Positions 735-21,368 of a stretch of DNA of 21,368 nucleotides are shown here, piece by piece. Both the position numbers and the translations under genes were made by a program. The DNA is from a virus. Position 1 is the stretch's first letter; each line of letters opens with the position of its first letter. The DNA lies in IMG/VR virus record IMGVR_UViG_3300005353_000006; one strand, written 5' to 3'. Below the pieces are notes generated by a model. That model worked only from the letters and a program-made list of their open reading frames with translations, did no database searches and had not been told where the DNA came from.

Positions 735-2178
735 GGCGGCACCCGGCCCGGCGCACGGATCGCTGGTGTTCAAGGGCGCCCAGCGGCCGCTGCGGCTGAT
801 CGAACTGCCGCCGTGGACGGGCTGGCGCCACACCTCGGAGGCCAAGCGGGCCGAGCGGTTCCTGGAGACCTACCTGGTGGTGCCGACGGGCCACGGCGCG
901 GCCGGGCCGTTCCGGATAGCGGGCTTCCAGCGCGAGCTGCTGCGCGAGATCTACGACCACCTGGCCACGTTCGCCTCGCTGCCCGCCGCGAACGGGAAGA
1001 CCACGTTCCTGGCGGCGCTGGCGCTGGAGCGGATCGCCCGCGGCGACGACTACGTGGAGGTGGACGTGATCGCCACCAAGCAGGAACAGGCCGGGTTCCT
1101 GGTGGAGGCCGCGATGCGGATGGTGGAGTCCTCGCCGGTGCTGGTCGATCGGTGCCGGTGGCACAGCCGCGAGCAGATCCTGGAGTACCGGCCGACCGGA
1201 TCCAAGCTGCAGGCGCACCCGGCCAAGCTGTCCGCGATCCAGGGCCTGAACTTCTCGCTGGCGATCATCGATGAGATCGGCTTCGCCCACGATGAGACGG
1301 TGGAGTCGCTGATCGCCCGGCTGGGCAAGCGGCCCGACGCGCGGCTGGTCGGGATCGGCACGCCCGGGTTCCAGGCGAACATCCTGCAGCGGCTGCGCGG
1401 CGCGCACCTGGACGGCGAGCTGCCCGCCGGTGTCCGCTACCTGGAGTGGGCAGCCGATCCCGGCTCGGCATCGGACGACCGACGGGCGTGGCGCAAGGCT
1501 AACCCGGCGCTGCGGGCCGGGTTCCTGACACCGGCCGCGCTGGCCGTCCAGCAGGGCCTCCTGAGCGATCGCGAGTTCCGCACCTACCACCTCGGGCTGT
1601 GGGTGGACGAGGCGGCAGCGTGGCTGCCGGAGGGCGCCTGGCAGGCGTGCGCGATGCAGCCGCCGCCGCCGGACGGCGGCGAGGTGGTGCTGGCGGTGGA
1701 AGGCACGTTCCGGCGCTCGGCGGCGGTCGCCGGGGCGACGATGGACGGCGCGATCTTCCACGGCTGGTGGGCGGAGGTGGCGACCGACCGCGACCTGCAC
1801 GAGCAGCTGGCCAGGGCGCTGGAGCGGTGGGACGTGCGGGCGATCGTGCACAACCGCCGGATCCGGTCGCGGCTGTTCGCCGAGCTGCGCGACGAGGGCG
1901 CGCCGGTGGTGCCGTGGGACGGGTCGGCCGACTCGGAGACCACCTCGGCCAACGAGTTCTACCGGGCGATCGTGGGCGGCGAGCTGGCGCACGATCACGC
2001 GCCGGTGGTGGCCGAGCAGGTCGCCAACCTGCGCGCCCGGTTCGGCGTGGACGGGTCGCTGCGGCTGGCCAGGCCGGACGACCCGGCCCGGTTCGGCGAC
2101 GCGGCGCTGGCAGCTCGCGCGGCCTGGTGGGTGGCGATGGCCGAGGCGCAGCAGGGCGGCGCCCCGACGATCTACTAG
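727..2178 (+). CDS. terL: Terminase large subunit (Terminase_1/HK97-like)
   Basis: Walker A PAANGKTTF, Walker B LAIIDEIGF, and a C-terminal nuclease-type region. ATG 727 chosen over the upstream 643 start because of the ATGGCTGA coupling with HNH and poorer GC3 upstream. Confidence 0.92.
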   Translation: MAEAAPGPAHGSLVFKGAQRPLRLIELPPWTGWRHTSEAKRAERFLETYLVVPTGHGAAGPFRIAGFQRELLREIYDHLATFASLPAANGKTTFLAALALERIARGDDYVEVDVIATKQEQAGFLVEAAMRMVESSPVLVDRCRWHSREQILEYRPTGSKLQAHPAKLSAIQGLNFSLAIIDEIGFAHDETVESLIARLGKRPDARLVGIGTPGFQANILQRLRGAHLDGELPAGVRYLEWAADPGSASDDRRAWRKANPALRAGFLTPAALAVQQGLLSDREFRTYHLGLWVDEAAAWLPEGAWQACAMQPPPPDGGEVVLAVEGTFRRSAAVAGATMDGAIFHGWWAEVATDRDLHEQLARALERWDVRAIVHNRRIRSRLFAELRDEGAPVVPWDGSADSETTSANEFYRAIVGGELAHDHAPVVAEQVANLRARFGVDGSLRLARPDDPARFGDAALAARAAWWVAMAEAQQGGAPTIY

Positions 2179-2290
2179 GCTGGCGGCAGGGGGCGGCGAG
2201 ACACGGTACGGCGCCCGTTCCGGCCGGACGATCATCGAGGCGCCACGCTGGCCTGCGAACCGTGCTCCGGCCGCCGCCCCCCAGGACGAC

Positions 2291-2318
2291 CAACGGGCCG
2301 CCCGAGGGCGACCCGTTG
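2291..2318. terminator. GC-rich hairpin between convergent terL and the minus-strand gene (putative bidirectional terminator T_A)
   Basis: CAACGGG(c)CGCCC-ga-GGGCG(a)CCCGTTG. Preceded by ccaggacga, the same 9-mer that precedes hairpin T_B at 3301-3309. Confidence 0.5.
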
Positions 2319-2364
2319 ACCATGGCGTGAAGGCTGCGAGCACAGCAGCCCGGGAGACCGGAGC

Positions 2365-3252
2365 CTAGCGCCCGGCCTCCTCGGCCAGCACCTTGGCGAC
2401 CGTCGGGTGGGTGCACCCGGCGAGCACCGCGATCGCGCGGTGCGACAGCCCGGCGGCGGCCGCGTCCACGATCGCCTGGCGCCAGGCGCGATCGGCCGTC
2501 ACCTTGGCGGCGGCGACCGCCACCAGCGTGGCGCCGATCGCGTCCTGCCGCTCGGCGCGGTCGGCGGCGGCGGCCTGGCCCGCGGTCTCGGCGACCTGCG
2601 CCAGCTCGGGCGCGGCGGCCGCGACCTCGGCCAGCGTGGCGGCCTCGTTGGCCTCCACCTGGGCGACCAGCTCAGGGTCGATCTCGCGCAGGTTCTCGCG
2701 GGTCGGGGCGGCCTGCAGCTTGCCCATGGTGACCTCCTCGGTGACGGGCTGGGCCTTGGCAAGGATCTTGCCGTAGCGGGTGCGGGCCTTGGCCAGCTTG
2801 GCCAGCGTCTCGGCGTGGCGCCGCTCGGCCCAGGCGATCGTCTCGGCGTAGTCCTCGGCGCGATCCGGGTACTGCTCGGTGTACGCGCCGTACACCTTGC
2901 GGGTGCTGGCCAGCTGCTCGTTGGCGGCCTGCACCCCGCGGCCGTCCTCGGCCACGTACGCCACCGCGATCTCGGCGGCCTCGGCCTCGGTCAGGATCAC
3001 AAAGCCACGCTTGAGCTGGCGGGTGGTGGTCGCGAAGGGCATGTGGGCGGCCGCGAACTTGGGCGGGTAGGCGACGCCGTAGCCGCTCATGCTGCCGTCG
3101 GTGCCGATGATCTCGCGGCCGACCCGGTAGGTGCCGGGCACGTCCTTGGCCTGGTGCAGGCCGCGCGCCTCGCGGGCGGCGGCGATCACGGCGGCGGCGG
3201 CGCCGCGGACGTGGGCCTTGCGGCCGGTGGTGGTGTTCGTGTCGGTGTTCAT
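2365..3252 (-). CDS. Orphan 295-aa protein with C-terminal HTH-like motif (cassette A); candidate DNA-binding regulator
   Basis: Minus-strand ORF with high GC3. ATG at 3252 lies 7 nt downstream of a -10 hexamer. C-terminus AIVDAAAAGLSHRAIAVLAGCTHPTVAKVL fits a resolvase/sigma-r4-style HTH pattern. The N-terminal domain is not recognised. Confidence 0.8.
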   Translation of the reverse strand: MNTDTNTTTGRKAHVRGAAAAVIAAAREARGLHQAKDVPGTYRVGREIIGTDGSMSGYGVAYPPKFAAAHMPFATTTRQLKRGFVILTEAEAAEIAVAYVAEDGRGVQAANEQLASTRKVYGAYTEQYPDRAEDYAETIAWAERRHAETLAKLAKARTRYGKILAKAQPVTEEVTMGKLQAAPTRENLREIDPELVAQVEANEAATLAEVAAAAPELAQVAETAGQAAAADRAERQDAIGATLVAVAAAKVTADRAWRQAIVDAAAAGLSHRAIAVLAGCTHPTVAKVLAEEAGR

Positions 3253-3259
3253 GGAAACA

Positions 3260-3288
3260 AGCTTACCATGGATCCTGGGGGATGGCAA
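3260..3288 (-). promoter_or_regulatory. Putative promoter P_A driving a leaderless transcript of cassette A
   Basis: Minus strand reads TTGCCA-17 nt-(TGG)TAAGCT-7 nt-ATG. -35 at 3283-3288, -10 at 3260-3265, with an extended -10 TGn. Confidence 0.6.
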
Positions 3289-3299
3289 GCGACTTTCCA
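3283..3299. promoter_or_regulatory. 17-bp imperfect palindrome O1, TGGCAAG-CGA-CTTTCCA, overlapping the -35 of P_A (putative operator)
   Basis: Half-sites TGGCAAG and TGGAAAG. An identical copy lies at 3658-3674 and a one-mismatch copy at 19405-19421. Confidence 0.6.
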
Positions 3300-3309
3300 C
3301 CCAGGACGA

Positions 3310-3337
3310 GAACGGGCGCCCCGTGGGGCGCCCGTTC
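3310..3337 (-). terminator. Perfect GC-rich hairpin T_B downstream of cassette B, abutting P_A
   Basis: GAACGGGCGCCC(c-gt-g)GGGCGCCCGTTC, with 12-13 bp arms. Preceded on the + strand by ccaggacga, as for T_A. Confidence 0.6.
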
Positions 3338-3360
3338 GATCGGGTGGGTGGCGGCCGGGC

Positions 3361-3627
3361 CTAGCGGCCGCCGCGCAGCTGGCGGGCGGTGACCTCCCCA
3401 GCGCGCTCCAGGGCGCACCGGAGATCGTCGCGGTCAGCGTTCCCGTTGGCGATGTCCTCCACCAGGCCGGTGAGGCCGACGCCGTTCAGCTGCTCGGAGT
3501 AGTGGCTGGCGAGCTGGTAGGCGTCGTCGCCCAGGTTGGCCACGATCCAGCCGGGGCGCTTGCCCGCGTCCAGCAGGTCGATCGCGGTGCGGAGGTGCAG
3601 GTTGGTGGCGCGCGTGTCGGTGTTCAT
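3361..3627 (-). CDS. Orphan 88-aa protein (cassette B) with N-terminal HTH-like pattern
   Basis: Minus-strand ORF. ATG at 3627 lies 7 nt downstream of a -10 hexamer. Shares its first five codons (MNTDT) with cassette A. AIDLLDAGKRPGWIVANLGDDAYQLASHY fits a helix-turn-helix pattern. Confidence 0.75.
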   Translation of the reverse strand: MNTDTRATNLHLRTAIDLLDAGKRPGWIVANLGDDAYQLASHYSEQLNGVGLTGLVEDIANGNADRDDLRCALERAGEVTARQLRGGR

Positions 3628-3634
3628 GGAAAGA

Positions 3635-3663
3635 ACCTTACCACAGGATCCGGGGGATGGCAA
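3635..3663 (-). promoter_or_regulatory. Putative promoter P_B driving a leaderless transcript of cassette B
   Basis: Minus strand reads TTGCCA-17 nt-(TGG)TAAGGT-7 nt-ATG. Confidence 0.6.
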
Positions 3664-3674
3664 GCGACTTTCCA
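3658..3674. promoter_or_regulatory. 17-bp palindrome O2 (identical to O1) overlapping the -35 of P_B
   Basis: TGGCAAGCGACTTTCCA read directly. Confidence 0.6.
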
Positions 3675-3683
3675 CGCCGGCCG

Positions 3684-3698
3684 GTTAGGCAGCCTAAC
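3684..3698. promoter_or_regulatory. Perfect 7-1-7 palindrome GTTAGGC-A-GCCTAAC in the divergent region between cassette B and portal
   Basis: Read directly. AT-enriched for this genome. Overlaps the -35 position of the putative portal promoter. Confidence 0.5.
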
Positions 3699-3714
3699 GA
3701 TCGTGCGCTAGAGT
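3685..3714 (+). promoter_or_regulatory. Putative rightward promoter for portal and downstream genes (leaderless geometry)
   Basis: -10 TAGAGT at 3709-3714, followed by exactly 7 nt and then the portal GTG at 3722. The -35 (TTAGGC/TAGGCA) is weak. Confidence 0.4.
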
Positions 3715-3721
3715 CGGCCCC

Positions 3722-4936
3722 GTGGGTCTGCTGGATCGGCTGCTGGGACGATCCGCACCGCCGCCGCCGTCGGTGCTCGGCCTGCCGTCCGGGTTCGATC
3801 CCGAGCTGGCCGGGCTGTTCGCCGGGTGGGCGTCGCCGCAGCTCGCCGAGCGCGTCGGCACCGCCGTGCGCTGCCTGCAGCTGGTCTGCCAGCAGGTGGC
3901 CGCCATGCCGATCCGGTTCCGCGGCGACTCGCCGGTGCCGCTGTGGGTGGCCAACCCTGACCCGGTGTGGTTCCCGAACGGCGCCGCTGATGCGACGTTC
4001 GCCACGATGGCGTCGATCTACGGCTGGGGCGACGCGTTCCTGCTGGTGACCGACCGCTACGTGACCGGCTTCCCGAGGGCCTACACCGTGCTGGATCCGC
4101 AGCAGGTGACCGTCGGCACCGACCCGGACGGCCGCGGCCGCACGTACCGGGTGAAGCAGTACGACCTGCGCAGCGAGGACGTGCTGCAGATCTCGCGCGA
4201 TCCGAACGGGCAGCTGCGCGGCACCTCGGCGCTGCAGGGCTACTCGGCCAACGTCCAGGGCGCCTACTTCGCCGAGAAGTTCGCGACCGACTTCTACCAG
4301 CAGGGCGGCGTGCCGTGGGCGGTGCTGCAGTCCAGCCGCCGCCTGGAGGCCGACCAGGCCGCCGCGCTGCAGGCGCAGTGGACAGCTCGGGTCGGCCTGC
4401 GCGGCGGCGCCCCGGCGGTGCTGCCGCCCGATGTCACGTTCCAGCAGTTCAGCTTCGCGCCGCGCGACCTGCTGCTGCTGGAGACCCGCGAGTGGGACGC
4501 CAAGCAGATCGCCGCCGCCTACGGCGTGCCCGCGTTCATGCTGAACATGGAGCAGGCGGGCGGCCTGAACTACTCCAACCCGGAGATGCTGTTCGACACC
4601 TGGTGGCGCACCGAGCTGTACCCGACCGCGCGCCGGGTGGAGGCCGCGCTGTCCACGTGGCTGCCGCGCGGCAGCTGGGTGGAGTTCGATCCGTCGATCC
4701 TGCTGCGGCCCGATCTGAAGACCGCCAGCGAGGTGTGGCTGGCGCTGCTCGCGGCCAACGTGGTGACGGTGGACGAGTGCCGCGCGGCGGTGCTGGATCT
4801 GCCGCCGCTGGCCGACGGCGAGGCGCTGGAGCTGATCGACGAGCCGCCCGGCGCGAACGCCAGCGGCCCGACCCCGCCCGACCTGCCCGCGCCGCCACCG
4901 GCGGCCGCACCCCTGGAGGTGGTGGCAAGTGCCTGA
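3722..4936 (+). CDS. Portal protein (HK97 family)
   Basis: 404 aa in the position after terL. Typical portal core QGGVPWAVLQS...FQQFSFAPRDLLLLETREWDAKQIAAAYGVPAFML...YSNPE. Confidence 0.9.
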   Translation: MGLLDRLLGRSAPPPPSVLGLPSGFDPELAGLFAGWASPQLAERVGTAVRCLQLVCQQVAAMPIRFRGDSPVPLWVANPDPVWFPNGAADATFATMASIYGWGDAFLLVTDRYVTGFPRAYTVLDPQQVTVGTDPDGRGRTYRVKQYDLRSEDVLQISRDPNGQLRGTSALQGYSANVQGAYFAEKFATDFYQQGGVPWAVLQSSRRLEADQAAALQAQWTARVGLRGGAPAVLPPDVTFQQFSFAPRDLLLLETREWDAKQIAAAYGVPAFMLNMEQAGGLNYSNPEMLFDTWWRTELYPTARRVEAALSTWLPRGSWVEFDPSILLRPDLKTASEVWLALLAANVVTVDECRAAVLDLPPLADGEALELIDEPPGANASGPTPPDLPAPPPAAAPLEVVASA

Positions 4937-7805: not shown

Positions 7806-7988
7806 ATGACCCCGCACCGTGACCGGCTGCTGGCCGGAGACTACGACCCTGGCAAGTCCGCTACCACCGACCTGGATCAGATGACCAAGGCCGAGCTGCT
7901 GGAGCACGCCCAGCGGCTCGGCGTGGCCGTCGATCCGAGCGCCACCAAGGCCGAGGTGCGGGCCGCGATCGACGCGGCCGGGAGCTGA
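7806..7988 (+). CDS. Small 60-aa protein with Rho-N/SAP-like helix-extended-helix motif
   Basis: ATG lies 2 nt after the MCP stop. MTKAELLEHAQRLGVAVDPSATKAEVRAAIDAA. Confidence 0.75.
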   Translation: MTPHRDRLLAGDYDPGKSATTDLDQMTKAELLEHAQRLGVAVDPSATKAEVRAAIDAAGS

Positions 7989-13844: not shown

Positions 13845-14705
13845 ATGGCTGATCTTGCAGTGTGGCCGACCGACGGCGCCGACGGCAGCGTCTCCTCCGA
13901 GGCGCGATGGCGCAAGATGGCGCGGCTGTGGGTGCCGAGCGGCGTGGACGTGTCGCCGCTCGGTGTCGGCGGCGCGGGTGCGCTGGCGCCGACGCTGGTG
14001 GCTGGCCCGACGATCAACGTGGCGATCGGCGGCTGTTGGCTGGACGGCCACTACGCCGAGCTGACCACGCCCGCCAGCGTGCCCGCGACCGCCAACGGCC
14101 TGCTGGTGGTGCGGTTCACCCCGGCCGACAATCACGCCGAGCTGCTGTTCCGCGACGCGGCGGTGCTGCCGCCGACGCAGACCGCCGTGACCTGGGAGCT
14201 GGCGATCGCCAGCATGGCGGCGGGCGCGCTGACCGACCGCAGGATGCGCAACGGGTCGCCGCCGACGTTCCCCAACTACGCCACCCTGAAGGCGCTGTAC
14301 CCGACCGCGCCGGACGGGTTCCAGGCGGTGACGCTGGACGACGGCCGCACCTACACGTTCCGGGCGGCCGCGTTCACGTACACCCCGCCCGGCGTGGCCG
14401 CACCAGCCAACCGCTGGGAGACGATCGTGATGGCCTCGTTCGCGAAGACCACCGACGCGTCGGGCCTGATCAACGTGACCGCCGCCGACCTGGGCGTGGA
14501 CGGGATCATCCACGGCACCGGCCACGCGGGCTGGGACGCGTCGGCGCCGCCCGGCCGCAACTTCGGCGCGTTCGTGCGCTGGACGGCCGCCACCAACCTG
14601 CAGTTCTGCAGCTGGAAGATCTCCGCCACCTCGGCGGGCACGCTGACCCTGAACACCTCGGTGTCGCTGAACGTCACCGCCCACGCGCTGTGCTGGCGGA
14701 TCTGA
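13845..14705 (+). CDS. Minor tail / putative receptor-binding (fibre-like) protein
   Basis: ATG follows GGAAAGGA. 286 aa. Position after the Tal-position gene. Confidence 0.7.
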   Translation: MADLAVWPTDGADGSVSSEARWRKMARLWVPSGVDVSPLGVGGAGALAPTLVAGPTINVAIGGCWLDGHYAELTTPASVPATANGLLVVRFTPADNHAELLFRDAAVLPPTQTAVTWELAIASMAAGALTDRRMRNGSPPTFPNYATLKALYPTAPDGFQAVTLDDGRTYTFRAAAFTYTPPGVAAPANRWETIVMASFAKTTDASGLINVTAADLGVDGIIHGTGHAGWDASAPPGRNFGAFVRWTAATNLQFCSWKISATSAGTLTLNTSVSLNVTAHALCWRI

Positions 14706-17128: not shown

Positions 17129-17137
17129 GCGCGCCCG

Positions 17138-17156
17138 GTGTCAATTCTGTGTCAAC
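17138..17156 (+). repeat. 19-bp direct repeat, copy 1: GTGTCAATTCTGTGTCAAC (two GTGTCA boxes 11 bp apart)
   Basis: 18 of 19 nt match 17345-17363. Confidence 0.9.
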
Positions 17157-17170
17157 CCTGACCGCGGCCA

Positions 17171-17207
17171 ACGGCCCGATCCCTGCAGCCATGCGGGATC
17201 GGGCCGT
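17171..17207. repeat. Perfect 13-bp inverted repeat with an 11-nt loop
   Basis: ACGGCCCGATCCC-tgcagccatgc-GGGATCGGGCCGT. Confidence 0.9.
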
Positions 17208-17209
17208 TC

Positions 17210-17236
17210 CCGTTCCGGTGTCTGACACCGAAACGG
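17210..17236. repeat. 13-1-13 palindrome with one mismatch, centred on GGTGTC-T-GACACC
   Basis: CCGTTCCGGTGTC-t-GACACCGAAACGG. Confidence 0.85.
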
Positions 17237-17315
17237 CCCCGCGCGTGTCTGCGGCCGTCGGCGGGATTCCGCGTAACCATGCGGGTTCGCGTGGTCTAGG
17301 CCGCGTGACCCTGCG

Positions 17316-18128: not shown

Positions 18129-19050
18129 GTGCGGCCGGGTGGTGGCGGCGCAGCTGGTGCCCGGCGCGTGGCTGTGCGAGACCTGCAACCGAGGAGGACG
18201 ACCCGTGAGCACTCCCGCTGAGCACGGCGGCGCCGCCCCGCCGCCCGAGAAGCCCCCTGAAACGCCCGCTGAGGCGATCCCGCCGTCCGAGGCCGAGGGT
18301 ACGGCCGAGGTGCTGGACGCGCCGGAGACGCCCGCTACGACGCCCGCACGTGGAAGCGGGCCTTCCACGCGGACGATCGATCCGCCCCGTGCCCTGCCTG
18401 CTCGCCGCGGGGTTCAGCTGGTCACCCGGCCGGAGCCGTCCTGGCGCGAGCTGGGCTGGTGGCTGTCGCTGGCCGAGTCGGGCCAGGAGACCGCCCAGGC
18501 CCGCGGCGGCCGCGCCGCGCTGCGCCTCTACTACGTGACCCAGCTGGGCCTGCCGCTGTGGGCGGCCAGCCACCTGTCGGTGATCAACGGCCGCCTGGTG
18601 GTGTCCTCGGAGCTGCTGCGCGCGATCGCGGCCCGCGCCGGGTACGACGTGGCGCCCGAGGACTGGACAGACGACAGCTGCACCGCCTACGTGGTGCGCC
18701 GCGCCGACGGCGAGGTGATCGGCCGGTACACGTTCACGATCGCCGACGCCCAGCGGGCCGAGCTGATCCGGCCCCGGTCGGCCTGGGTGACGCACCCGCG
18801 CCGGATGCTGTGGGCGCGAGCGGCCGCGTTCGCGCTGCGCGACGCGATCCCGGAGGTGGTGCTGGGCTTCCAGACCACCGACGAGCAGGCCGAGATCTAC
18901 GGCCGCGAGGCGGAGCCGATCGGCGTGGACGCGCCGTACGAGTACGGCCCCGCCGAGCGAGACGAGGACATCCCGTTCCGGTGGCGCGACCCGTGGCTGA
19001 CCGGGGAGGTGAACGTCGATGGCGCGGCCGACCACCTGCGACTGCGGTAG
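18109..19050 (+). CDS. RecT-family single-strand annealing protein with N-terminal CxxC-x14-CxxC zinc ribbon and Pro-rich linker
   Basis: The C-terminal part aligns by eye with RecT (YVTQLGLPL...; AWVTHPRRMLWARAAAFALRDAIP versus E. coli RecT PWVTHWEEMAKKTAIRRLFKYLP). Alternative start is GTG 18205, after GAGGAGGAC. Confidence 0.8.
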   Translation: MPTLCRECGRVVAAQLVPGAWLCETCNRGGRPVSTPAEHGGAAPPPEKPPETPAEAIPPSEAEGTAEVLDAPETPATTPARGSGPSTRTIDPPRALPARRGVQLVTRPEPSWRELGWWLSLAESGQETAQARGGRAALRLYYVTQLGLPLWAASHLSVINGRLVVSSELLRAIAARAGYDVAPEDWTDDSCTAYVVRRADGEVIGRYTFTIADAQRAELIRPRSAWVTHPRRMLWARAAAFALRDAIPEVVLGFQTTDEQAEIYGREAEPIGVDAPYEYGPAERDEDIPFRWRDPWLTGEVNVDGAADHLRLR

Positions 19051-19403: not shown

Positions 19404-19931
19404 GTGGCAAGCGACCTTCCACCGAGGCCCGCCTGGCGGCGCCGCTGTGCCCTGGCCGCCGTCTCGCCCGGCGCCAAGGCCGTCGTGCTGGCGCTGGACA
19501 CCTACATGGACGCGGCCTGCCGCGCGCAGGTCTCGCGCGGCAGGCTGGCGGCCGATCTCGGCGTGACGGCGCGCACCGCGCTGCGGTGGATTCACGAGCT
19601 GGAGGCGGCCGAGCTGCTGGGCGTCGATCGCACGATCGGGCACCACGTGAACCGCTACCAGGGCCGTCCCTACGGTGACACCCGCGACACCGTGACGGTG
19701 ACACGGGCGTCACGGTCTACGGTGACAGCTGAGACCGCCGACGGTGACAGCTCACGACCACTGACGGTGACACGGGTGTCACCCGAACTAGAAGGTCAGA
19801 AGGACAACGGCGCGGGCGCGCGCGGCGACGGTCAAGCCCGCGGCGAGGGCTACGGCAGCGCCTCGGGCGCGCAGCTCGCGCGGGAGGCGGCGGCGGCAGC
19901 CCGGCGGAGGATCCTGGAGGGCGGCGCGTGA
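19404..19931 (+). CDS. Winged-helix DNA-binding protein, candidate replication initiator (lambda O-like arrangement)
   Basis: KAVVLALDTYMDAACRAQVSRGRLAADLGVTARTALRWIHELEAAELLGV is a typical wHTH pattern. The iteron array lies inside its own coding sequence. Confidence 0.75.
   Translation: MASDLPPRPAWRRRCALAAVSPGAKAVVLALDTYMDAACRAQVSRGRLAADLGVTARTALRWIHELEAAELLGVDRTIGHHVNRYQGRPYGDTRDTVTVTRASRSTVTAETADGDSSRPLTVTRVSPELEGQKDNGAGARGDGQARGEGYGSASGAQLAREAAAAARRRILEGGA
19405..19421. promoter_or_regulatory. 17-bp palindrome O3, TGGCAAG-CGA-CCTTCCA, over the start codon of the initiator-like gene
   Basis: 16 of 17 nt identical to O1/O2. No -10 lies at the position used in P_A/P_B. Confidence 0.55.
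19672..19772 (+). repeat. Five direct iterons ACGGTGACA at spacings of 23, 24, 22 and 23 bp (candidate origin iterons)
   Basis: Copies at 19672, 19695, 19719, 19741 and 19764. Copies 2 and 5 extend to GGTGACACGGGYGTCAC. Confidence 0.85.
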
Positions 19932-21260: not shown

Positions 21261-21368
21261 GTGACCGACCAGGCCGAGGCGCCGGACACCGAGCGCACCG
21301 ATGACGCTGCCTTCAGCGACGACGCCACCGAGAAGCTGGGCGACGCCACCGAGCGCGAGACCAACGAG
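21261..21368 (+). CDS. Hyper-acidic small protein, 5' part (continues at nt 1 across the circular junction)
   Basis: GTG 21261 lies 3 nt after GGAGGAG (21251-21257). In frame with nt 1-177 through the terminal repeat. Confidence 0.7.
   Translation, partial: MTDQAEAPDTERTDDAAFSDDATEKLGDATERETNE
21309..21368. repeat. Terminal direct repeat, copy 2
   Basis: Identical to nt 1-60. Confidence 0.97.

Follow-up and report, generated by a model that had tools for sequence, protein, structure and literature searches.

What are two identical palindromes doing on the promoters of the only two antisense genes of a phage genome? The question is raised by the virus record IMGVR_UViG_3300005353_000006 of IMG/VR, a stretch of 21,368 nucleotides (nt) that is called the window in what follows, and in which all genes run clockwise except cassettes A and B, two minus-strand genes located between those for terminase and portal. 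A first-pass annotation of this DNA had pointed out that the same 17-mer, TGGCAAGCGACTTTCCA, stands in front of both cassettes, and had read it as an operator through which a dimeric helix-turn-helix (HTH) protein shuts off its own promoter. The observation itself was confirmed, as exact + strand matches to TGGCAAGCGACTTTCCA are found at 3283-3299 and 3658-3674 and the -35 hexamer TTGCCA is seen on the minus strand of each copy. The 17-mer is an imperfect palindrome, the arms of which (TGGCAAG and TGGAAAG) pair at six of seven positions around a 3-nt centre. We consider it probable, at roughly 0.6, that protein A, the product of cassette A, is an HTH repressor that would bind two operators at each antisense promoter and, in addition, a set of silencing sites dispersed over the genome.

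The elements of the antisense region on which this reading is built are:
2365-3252, minus strand: cassette A gene, 295 amino acids (aa), candidate repressor, predicted to be expressed from a leaderless mRNA
3252-3268, minus strand: putative operator site 2 of cassette A, reads TGGTAAGCTTGTTTCCA, 1 mismatch to the degenerate palindrome TGGNAAG-N3-CTTNCCA
3283-3299, minus strand: putative operator site 1 of cassette A, reads TGGAAAGTCGCTTGCCA, an exact match that holds the -35 hexamer TTGCCA at 3283-3288
3310-3337, minus strand: GC-rich hairpin (stem of 12 bp, loop of 4 nt), past the stop of B and ahead of the promoter of A
3361-3627, minus strand: cassette B gene, 88 aa, apparently variable cargo on the duplicated promoter module
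3627-3643, minus strand: putative operator site 2 of cassette B, reads TGGTAAGGTTCTTTCCA, 0 mismatches to the degenerate palindrome
3658-3674, minus strand: putative operator site 1 of cassette B, same sequence as that of A, with the -35 hexamer TTGCCA at 3658-3663
3228-3308 (copy 1) and 3603-3683 (copy 2), minus strand: promoter/operator/start module, repeat family D5, 83% identity

Along the minus strand each promoter reads TTGCCA, 17 bp, TGG-TAAGCT (cassette A) or TGG-TAAGGT (cassette B), 7 nt and ATG. Site 1 covers the -35 element, and a second palindrome, site 2, starts 31 bp (three helical turns) from it in both promoters. Site 2 of cassette A extends from the extended -10 element (TGG plus TAAGCT, 3260-3265) to the A of the ATG at 3252, and site 2 of cassette B contains the -10 sequence TAAGGT at 3635-3640 and has the A of the ATG at 3627 as its last base. 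A TANNNT -10 element is located 6-7 nt before the ATG in 14 of 14 distinct promoter versions. This layout is predicted to be that of an actinobacterial extended -10 promoter, and the mRNA would be leaderless because the predicted transcript start is the A of the ATG. No Shine-Dalgarno sequence is found at the cassette starts, and an in-frame upstream GTG is ruled out as the start codon because of a 1-nt spacer indel in the related contig L014. A generic scan of 2100-3800 for E. coli-type sigma-70 promoters (TTGACA/TATAAT) returned no promoter-like sites, the -10 elements matching TATAAT at 3/6 positions, and the promoter call therefore rests on the actinobacterial TANNNT/leaderless layout together with its conservation. 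A generic terminator scan gave none either, and in high-G+C genomes such scans carry no information on promoters that are leaderless or on terminators that lack a U-tract. The hairpin at 3310-3337, which is kept in relatives, is probably a U-less intrinsic terminator by which one cassette is insulated from the other; a folding energy of -45.1 kcal/mol (z = -4.4) was obtained for the 67 nt that include it (3296-3362).

The cassette B copy of the module, and that copy only, adjoins a putative leaderless promoter for the portal gene, made up of TAGAGT at 3709-3714, 7 nt and a GTG at 3722. At its -35 position (within 3685-3722) lies a 13-bp palindrome, TTAGGCAGCCTAA, the arms of which are conserved in relatives along with the TANNNT, the centre being variable. 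TTAGGCAGCCTAA is present in a single copy and does not belong to the operator family; it may be a separate control site for the late genes.

Chance does not account for the 17-mer copies, as a search that allowed up to 3 mismatches found 3 where 0.03 were expected; the third copy, TGGCAAGCGACCTTCCA, has 1 mismatch and is found at 19405-19421 without promoter context. Common descent is a different matter. Both 17-mers lie within an 81-nt direct repeat, the D5 module listed above, which has a 24-nt identical core, covers both promoter elements and extends 14 nt into the coding sequence (MNTDT). Four relatives (L004, L005, L006, and L023) lack cassette B; in these the flank of B on the portal side runs straight into the spacer and gene of cassette A, a difference of 375 bp, the junction of which falls inside the repeat. 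As the junction is a clean one inside the repeat, the two copies are best seen as the outcome of a duplication of the module or, viewed from the other side, of its recombinational loss. The identity of the two 17-mers is thus weak evidence for function, because copies inside a duplicated module are not independent: the identity stems from a segmental duplication or recombination module and not from independent selection. It could even be argued that both copies are nothing but a by-product of a recent duplication of the promoter module, the palindrome being an incidental combination of the -35 element and its flank with no operator function. The repeat and the 375-bp indel between repeats in relatives are in favour of this, and the identity of the copies would be expected anyway because both lie in the repeat; the evidence that speaks against it comes from sites elsewhere in the genome and from conservation, and is given below.

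Almost all cassettes share the same first 14 transcribed nt, ATGAACACCGACAC (MNTDT; +1 to +14 on the minus strand, at 3239-3252 and 3614-3627), irrespective of the protein encoded, and the exceptions, L013 (ATGACC) and P0017 (MHTDT), deviate by one base or residue each. This constancy suggests a role at the DNA or RNA level, and we assume a CA-rich enhancer of leaderless translation to be one possibility; alternatively, ATGAACACCGACAC may merely be part of a mobile module.

The cargo behind the module does vary. It consists of gene A, a 209-aa variant of A (P0014), gene B, an unrelated 84-aa protein that takes the place of cassette B in L018, or nothing, as in the four relatives in which cassette B is absent. 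Judged by these comparisons, cassette B is dispensable among the relatives and is variable cargo. The AlphaFold2 (AF2) model of protein B is a five-helix bundle with a predicted local distance difference test (pLDDT) score of 89, for which neither a fold match nor a DNA-binding signature was found. The earlier proposal that the cassette B protein is also a DNA binder is therefore regarded as improbable, given a five-helix bundle with no sign of DNA binding that is replaced or absent in relatives. An extra gene of 106 aa is located directly downstream of gene A in L014 (9980-10300) and L016 (10966-11286) and is not present in the window; it matches no family in PADLOC or NCBIfam and again points to the antisense region as a slot for variable cargo.

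Outside the module the palindrome recurs as a dispersed family. The pattern TGGNAAG-N3-CTTNCCA has 8 matches with up to 1 mismatch (0.01 expected) and 11 with up to 2 mismatches (0.13 expected), starting at 2757, 3252, 3283, 3627, 3658, 4923, 7850, 10767, 13828, 15671, and 19405. When the same arms were searched with a centre of 1, 2, 4, or 5 nt no further sites were found, the sole match being an offset reading of the 19405 site. The same excess of sites is seen in two diverged relatives, a complete IMG/VR genome of 20,855 bp (from L010 and L020) and L014, a contig from a metagenome-assembled genome, and the sites outside promoters are syntenic in genomes with a protein A that is 67-73% identical to that of the window. 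These seven sites, to which no strand is assigned, are listed here with the genomes or loci that share them:
2757-2773: operator-like site TGGCAAGGATCTTGCCG, in the coding sequence of gene A about 480 bp past its start, includes a rare CTT codon; shared with g10 and L014
4923-4939: operator-like site TGGCAAGTGCCTGACCA, across the stop codon of the portal gene and the start codon of the protease gene; shared with g10, L019, L016, L018, L009, and L006
7850-7866: operator-like site TGGCAAGTCCGCTACCA, directly past the major capsid gene, within an open reading frame (ORF) of 60 aa; shared with L014 and L019
10767-10783: operator-like site TGGTAAGACGCTTCCCG, within the tape-measure gene; shared with g10, L014, L016, L018, L009, and L006
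13828-13844: operator-like site TGGAAAGGATCTAACCG, at a tail-gene stop/start junction, with the TAA inside the site and the ATG at 13845; shared with g10 and L014
15671-15687: operator-like site TGGAAACTGTGTTACCA, between the stop of a small ORF and the integrase start region; shared with g10 and L014
19405-19421: near-exact copy TGGCAAGCGACCTTCCA, where the endonuclease gene stops and the replication-initiator-like gene starts; shared with g10, L014, and L019

Four of the seven are thus placed on stop/start junctions (4923, 13828, 15671, and 19405) and three inside genes (2757, 7850, and 10767). Rare codons that end in A or T are found at the sites that lie within coding sequence: three of the seven codons overlapped by the tape-measure site end in A or T (P = 0.005), compared with 5.6% AT at third codon positions genome-wide, and two of seven do so at 7850. 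The sites follow each other around the circle at intervals of about 3 kb, which is more even than for random points (coefficient of variation 0.35, P about 0.003-0.008) in a test that was chosen after the data had been seen. Two weaker palindromes, at 18351 (TGGAAGCGGGCCTTCCA) and 20754, occupy the largest gaps between sites. The small ORF that precedes the integrase gene is possibly an excisionase, with no family match.

The distribution of the sites also bears on whether the repeats are module boundaries or recombination sequences for the exchange of cassettes instead of elements of transcription control. Variable cargo, the deletion junction inside the repeat and the location of several sites at gene boundaries would all fit such a function. 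However, the sites in the tape-measure gene, in gene A and in the 60-aa ORF are not at module boundaries, and symmetry, a fixed N3 and a 31-bp phasing over the -35 and -10 elements are features of recognition by a protein. Any repeat can recombine as a side effect, and we regard an exchange function as improbable.

Conservation within the promoters was assessed from an alignment of 11 distinct promoter versions with canonical spacing, a set that leaves out L014 with its 13-nt spacer. Sixteen of the 17 columns of site 1 are invariant; the variable column adjoins the centre and shows three bases among the 11 versions and the fourth base in L014. Site 2 is invariant in 11 of 17 columns, and in relatives site 2 of cassette A keeps TGGTA..T..TTCCA without change. 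The same alignment has only one invariant column in the 14-nt spacer and none in the 28 nt of upstream flank. In L012 site 1 is shifted 14 bp upstream and is still palindromic, and in L013 both sites are 16-mers and the HTH is altered. A by-product of module duplication would account neither for a site 1 that is conserved across diverged promoters when spacer and flank are not, nor for a displaced site 1 that retains its symmetry, nor for the third copy and at least six further sites outside the repeat, and we consider this explanation to be quite improbable.

The palindromes could in principle act in the form of RNA or DNA hairpins, i.e., as terminators, processing sites, or cruciforms, as they are inverted repeats and one orientation folds at -8 kcal/mol. 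Shuffled sequence, however, folds at least as well as three of the four constructs, 10 of the 11 sites have bases at positions 4 and 14 that are not complementary and do not co-vary, and on the strand under its control site 1 precedes the transcription start. On the grounds of weak folding, the unpaired positions 4 and 14 and the position of site 1 a hairpin role was rejected as extremely improbable.

If the palindromes are operators, a binder is needed, and the most likely one, going by sequence and predicted structure, is the C-terminal HTH of protein A. The C-terminus of protein A gives weak matches to HTH_23 and to phrog_5497, 'HTH DNA binding protein'. Its AF2 model (mean pLDDT 75) shows a novel N-terminal alpha/beta domain, long helices at 105-167 and a disordered linker, followed by a long helix (216-266) and a three-helix HTH (271-294). 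In a Foldseek search of the PDB the C-terminus alone gave matches, which are short, to the HTHs of LuxR-type proteins, Pax paired domains and SIRV1 ORF55; nothing significant was found for the models of A and B beyond these, and sequence searches of the PDB with A and B returned chance-level matches only. No S24 domain and no other Pfam or NCBIfam domain was found in protein A, 50,697 phage records searched with it by tblastn yielded nothing at E <= 0.01, a search with the C-terminal module alone gave nothing at E <= 0.001, and PADLOC and NCBIfam returned nothing for A, B, P0014, and two neighbouring cargo proteins. The family is very small, with 14 clusters at 90% identity, all of them on metagenomic contigs, the long ones of 15.8-25.8 kb. 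In P0014 (loci L019 and L026) an unrelated domain has taken the place of the N-terminal one, but the long helix and the HTH are kept, as are promoter and dispersed sites. The HTH module is the constant partner of the operators since it is retained in P0014 despite the N-terminal swap. Only protein A is a credible binder; protein B is an unlikely one.

It is conceivable that the operators are real and that something else binds them, either a phage protein of the lytic phase that silences the antisense cassettes and so removes what opposes late transcription from terminase to portal, or a regulator of the host. The antisense promoters themselves carry the strongest sites, site 1 of cassette B is located at about -45 to -61 of the putative portal promoter, where a bound protein could favour late transcription, and the assignment of the HTH in protein A is weak. 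On the other hand, the genome yielded no further DNA-binding domain without an assignment, and the HTH module of the A type is the only component to co-occur with the sites in every relative, even after the N-terminal swap. To our knowledge the motif does not fit any actinobacterial box, LexA, IdeR, Zur, CRP/GlxR, and HrcA being among those considered. A different binder is accordingly regarded as unlikely, though as a more serious contender than the explanations dealt with above.

With protein A as the binder the system would operate as follows. Each cassette would be transcribed from a sigma-70-type promoter with site 1 over the -35 element and site 2 over the region from -10 to +1. Dimers of protein A, or higher oligomers formed through the long helices, would occupy sites 1 and 2 on one face of the DNA and shut out RNA polymerase at the antisense promoters, and this exclusion would lead to negative autoregulation of A and to co-regulation of the cargo cassette, the hairpin at 3310-3337 separating the two transcription units. 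Protein A would probably also bind at least seven further sites about 3 kb apart, including the one at the start of the replication gene, and these distal sites would be roadblocks or anchoring points that silence the lytic genes of the + strand in a lysogen. What the DNA displays directly is the sites, their enrichment and spacing specificity, the footprint, the synteny, the promoter geometry and an HTH module that travels with them. The idea with which the first-pass annotation started, operators for a dimeric HTH protein that overlap a promoter, is in its core backed by several independent lines: a 17-bp footprint wider than the -35 element, a second palindrome over -10/+1, a third copy outside any promoter, a genome-wide enrichment that is specific to N3 spacing, and an HTH protein encoded directly downstream. 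Local autoregulation was an incomplete description, as a second operator per promoter and at least seven further sites had been overlooked, and because of these the system is more than local autoregulation. Whether it amounts to a third, independently evolved form of genome-wide immunity is a more tentative matter; in such a system a coiled-coil HTH protein without known relatives might act on symmetric 17-bp sites placed as roadblocks or looping anchors about every 3 kb, with a portable promoter-operator-leaderless MNTDT module that captures and expresses exchangeable cargo genes and, on the repressor itself, exchangeable sensor domains, and we hold this wider proposal to be possible but doubtful.

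Several points weigh against protein A as a genome-wide repressor. The strongest sites are those at the promoters of its own gene and of the neighbouring cassette (site 2 of cassette B has the highest score of the genome's sites under a position weight matrix, in a circular ranking, since the scored sites are those from which the matrix was made), and with such an arrangement a classical immunity repressor would shut itself off before the weaker distal sites are filled, unless binding is cooperative. The HTH matches are below the Pfam gathering score (19.9 versus 24.6 bits), an extended -10 element would explain part of site 2 (TGG-TA...T) just as well, and the evenness of the spacing was tested post hoc. 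The non-coding region 17129-17315, which is likely to be an early control region or attP, contains no member of the operator family. In a collection of 185,579 species genomes the scan with the protein A alignment gave 0 matches, as did the scan with the dual-operator DNA pattern, and no host can be assigned because both were empty. Lastly, the identity of the binder, repression by binding and the roadblock role are inferred from the DNA.

The setting of the locus is that of a small temperate phage. The window begins and ends with the same 60 nt (1-60 = 21309-21368), which indicates a circular or terminally redundant assembly and a complete genome of 21,308 bp, and its G+C content is 73%. The clockwise genes in question are:
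plus strand: HNH endonuclease, large terminase, portal, S78 protease, capsid protein, tape-measure protein
plus strand, continued: tyrosine integrase, RecT-like protein, second endonuclease, HTH_36 replication-initiator-like protein

The portal protein is at most 32% identical to the portals of Mycobacterium and Microbacterium phages, and the DNA of 2300-3800 had no match among the 50,697 phage records in distant mode; on account of both results the phage is taken to be an uncultivated temperate one that resembles actinophages. With its high G+C content it is probably an actinobacterial phage. So far the lineage has been seen in metagenome assemblies of 20.9-25.8 kb, soil samples among them.

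Three further regions of the genome have features of their own. Downstream of the integrase gene and the short ORF that follows it, 17129-17315 carries GTGTCAA twice and a palindrome, GGTGTCTGACACC, and is a candidate attP or early control region; a tRNA scan for an att site found none. The replication-initiator-like gene (19404-19931) contains in its 3' part five exact copies of a direct repeat, ACGGTGACA, at intervals of 22-24 bp (19672-19772), and these are probably iterons of the replication protein or a replication origin. Where the terminase gene and gene A converge, the gap between them (2179-2364) has a 17-bp GC-rich stem, which is probably a bidirectional terminator, although shuffled sequence folds at least as well as the entire region.

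Repressors with dispersed sites are already known from other phages, and the comparison with them shows what is shared. In L5 and other Cluster A mycobacteriophages (gp71, TipsytheTRex) the repressor sites are dispersed and found at promoters and in short intergenic gaps, the L5 sites being 13 bp long, asymmetric, orientation-dependent and bound by a monomer with two DNA-binding domains, and Cluster A sites have been proposed to block both initiation and elongation (PMC9283540). In the Streptomyces phage R4 the repressor sites are likewise dispersed across the genome (PMC10276819). One phage HTH repressor with many dispersed sites is also what is predicted here. In contrast to Cluster A and L5, the sites are 17 bp long and symmetric with a fixed 3-nt centre, they number 11-13 as opposed to more than 20, and their symmetry implies a dimer. 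No homology of protein A to L5 gp71 was detected, as it is without a match in the 50,697 phage records and its sole PHROG match is to a generic HTH family; and unlike in Cluster A, the gene is antisense between terminase and portal, inside the structural operon. The operators of phiC31 are 17-bp inverted repeats, and multiple inverted-repeat sites dispersed through the genome are a feature that the two phages have in common. This temperate Streptomyces phage has 18-30 dispersed repressor sites, and its repressor gene, c, is not in a divergent pair of the cI/cro type (PMC4557955). The site sequence is nevertheless different, and protein A has no tblastn match in a collection that includes Lomovskayavirus records.

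Locally the arrangement resembles that of lambda, in which cI dimers with an HTH occupy 17-bp pseudo-palindromic tandem operators at OR over the -35 and -10 elements on one face of the helix (PMC9283540). Here too pseudo-palindromes of about 17 bp, 31 bp apart, lie over the -35 (TTGCCA) and the -10/+1 of both promoters. The differences are that each promoter has two sites and not three and that extra sites occur far from promoters, that the HTH is C-terminal (271-294) and no S24 peptidase (LexA-like) domain is present as in lambda CI, and that no cro-like gene was found in the window as a divergent partner.

If protein A does bind the sites, this would have consequences beyond the locus. Silencing by dispersed operators would be a recurrent solution in high-G+C phages and not peculiar to two groups, a new DNA-binding family with a well-defined 17-bp target would have been found, and the module would be a worked example of how a promoter-operator unit moves cargo (morons) by recombination between copies. 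The motif is a ready signature for finding such prophages and grouping them by immunity type, and the two promoters are candidate expression parts for actinobacteria, tightly auto-repressed and leaderless. The small-phage lineage would then represent a compact, symmetric counterpart to the stoperator and phiC31 strategies. Dispersed-site repressors as such are already known, and what is new here is a symmetric 17-bp site family together with an unrelated HTH protein; the system, as predicted, would work like the dispersed-site repression of L5 and phiC31 and yet be a member of neither family.

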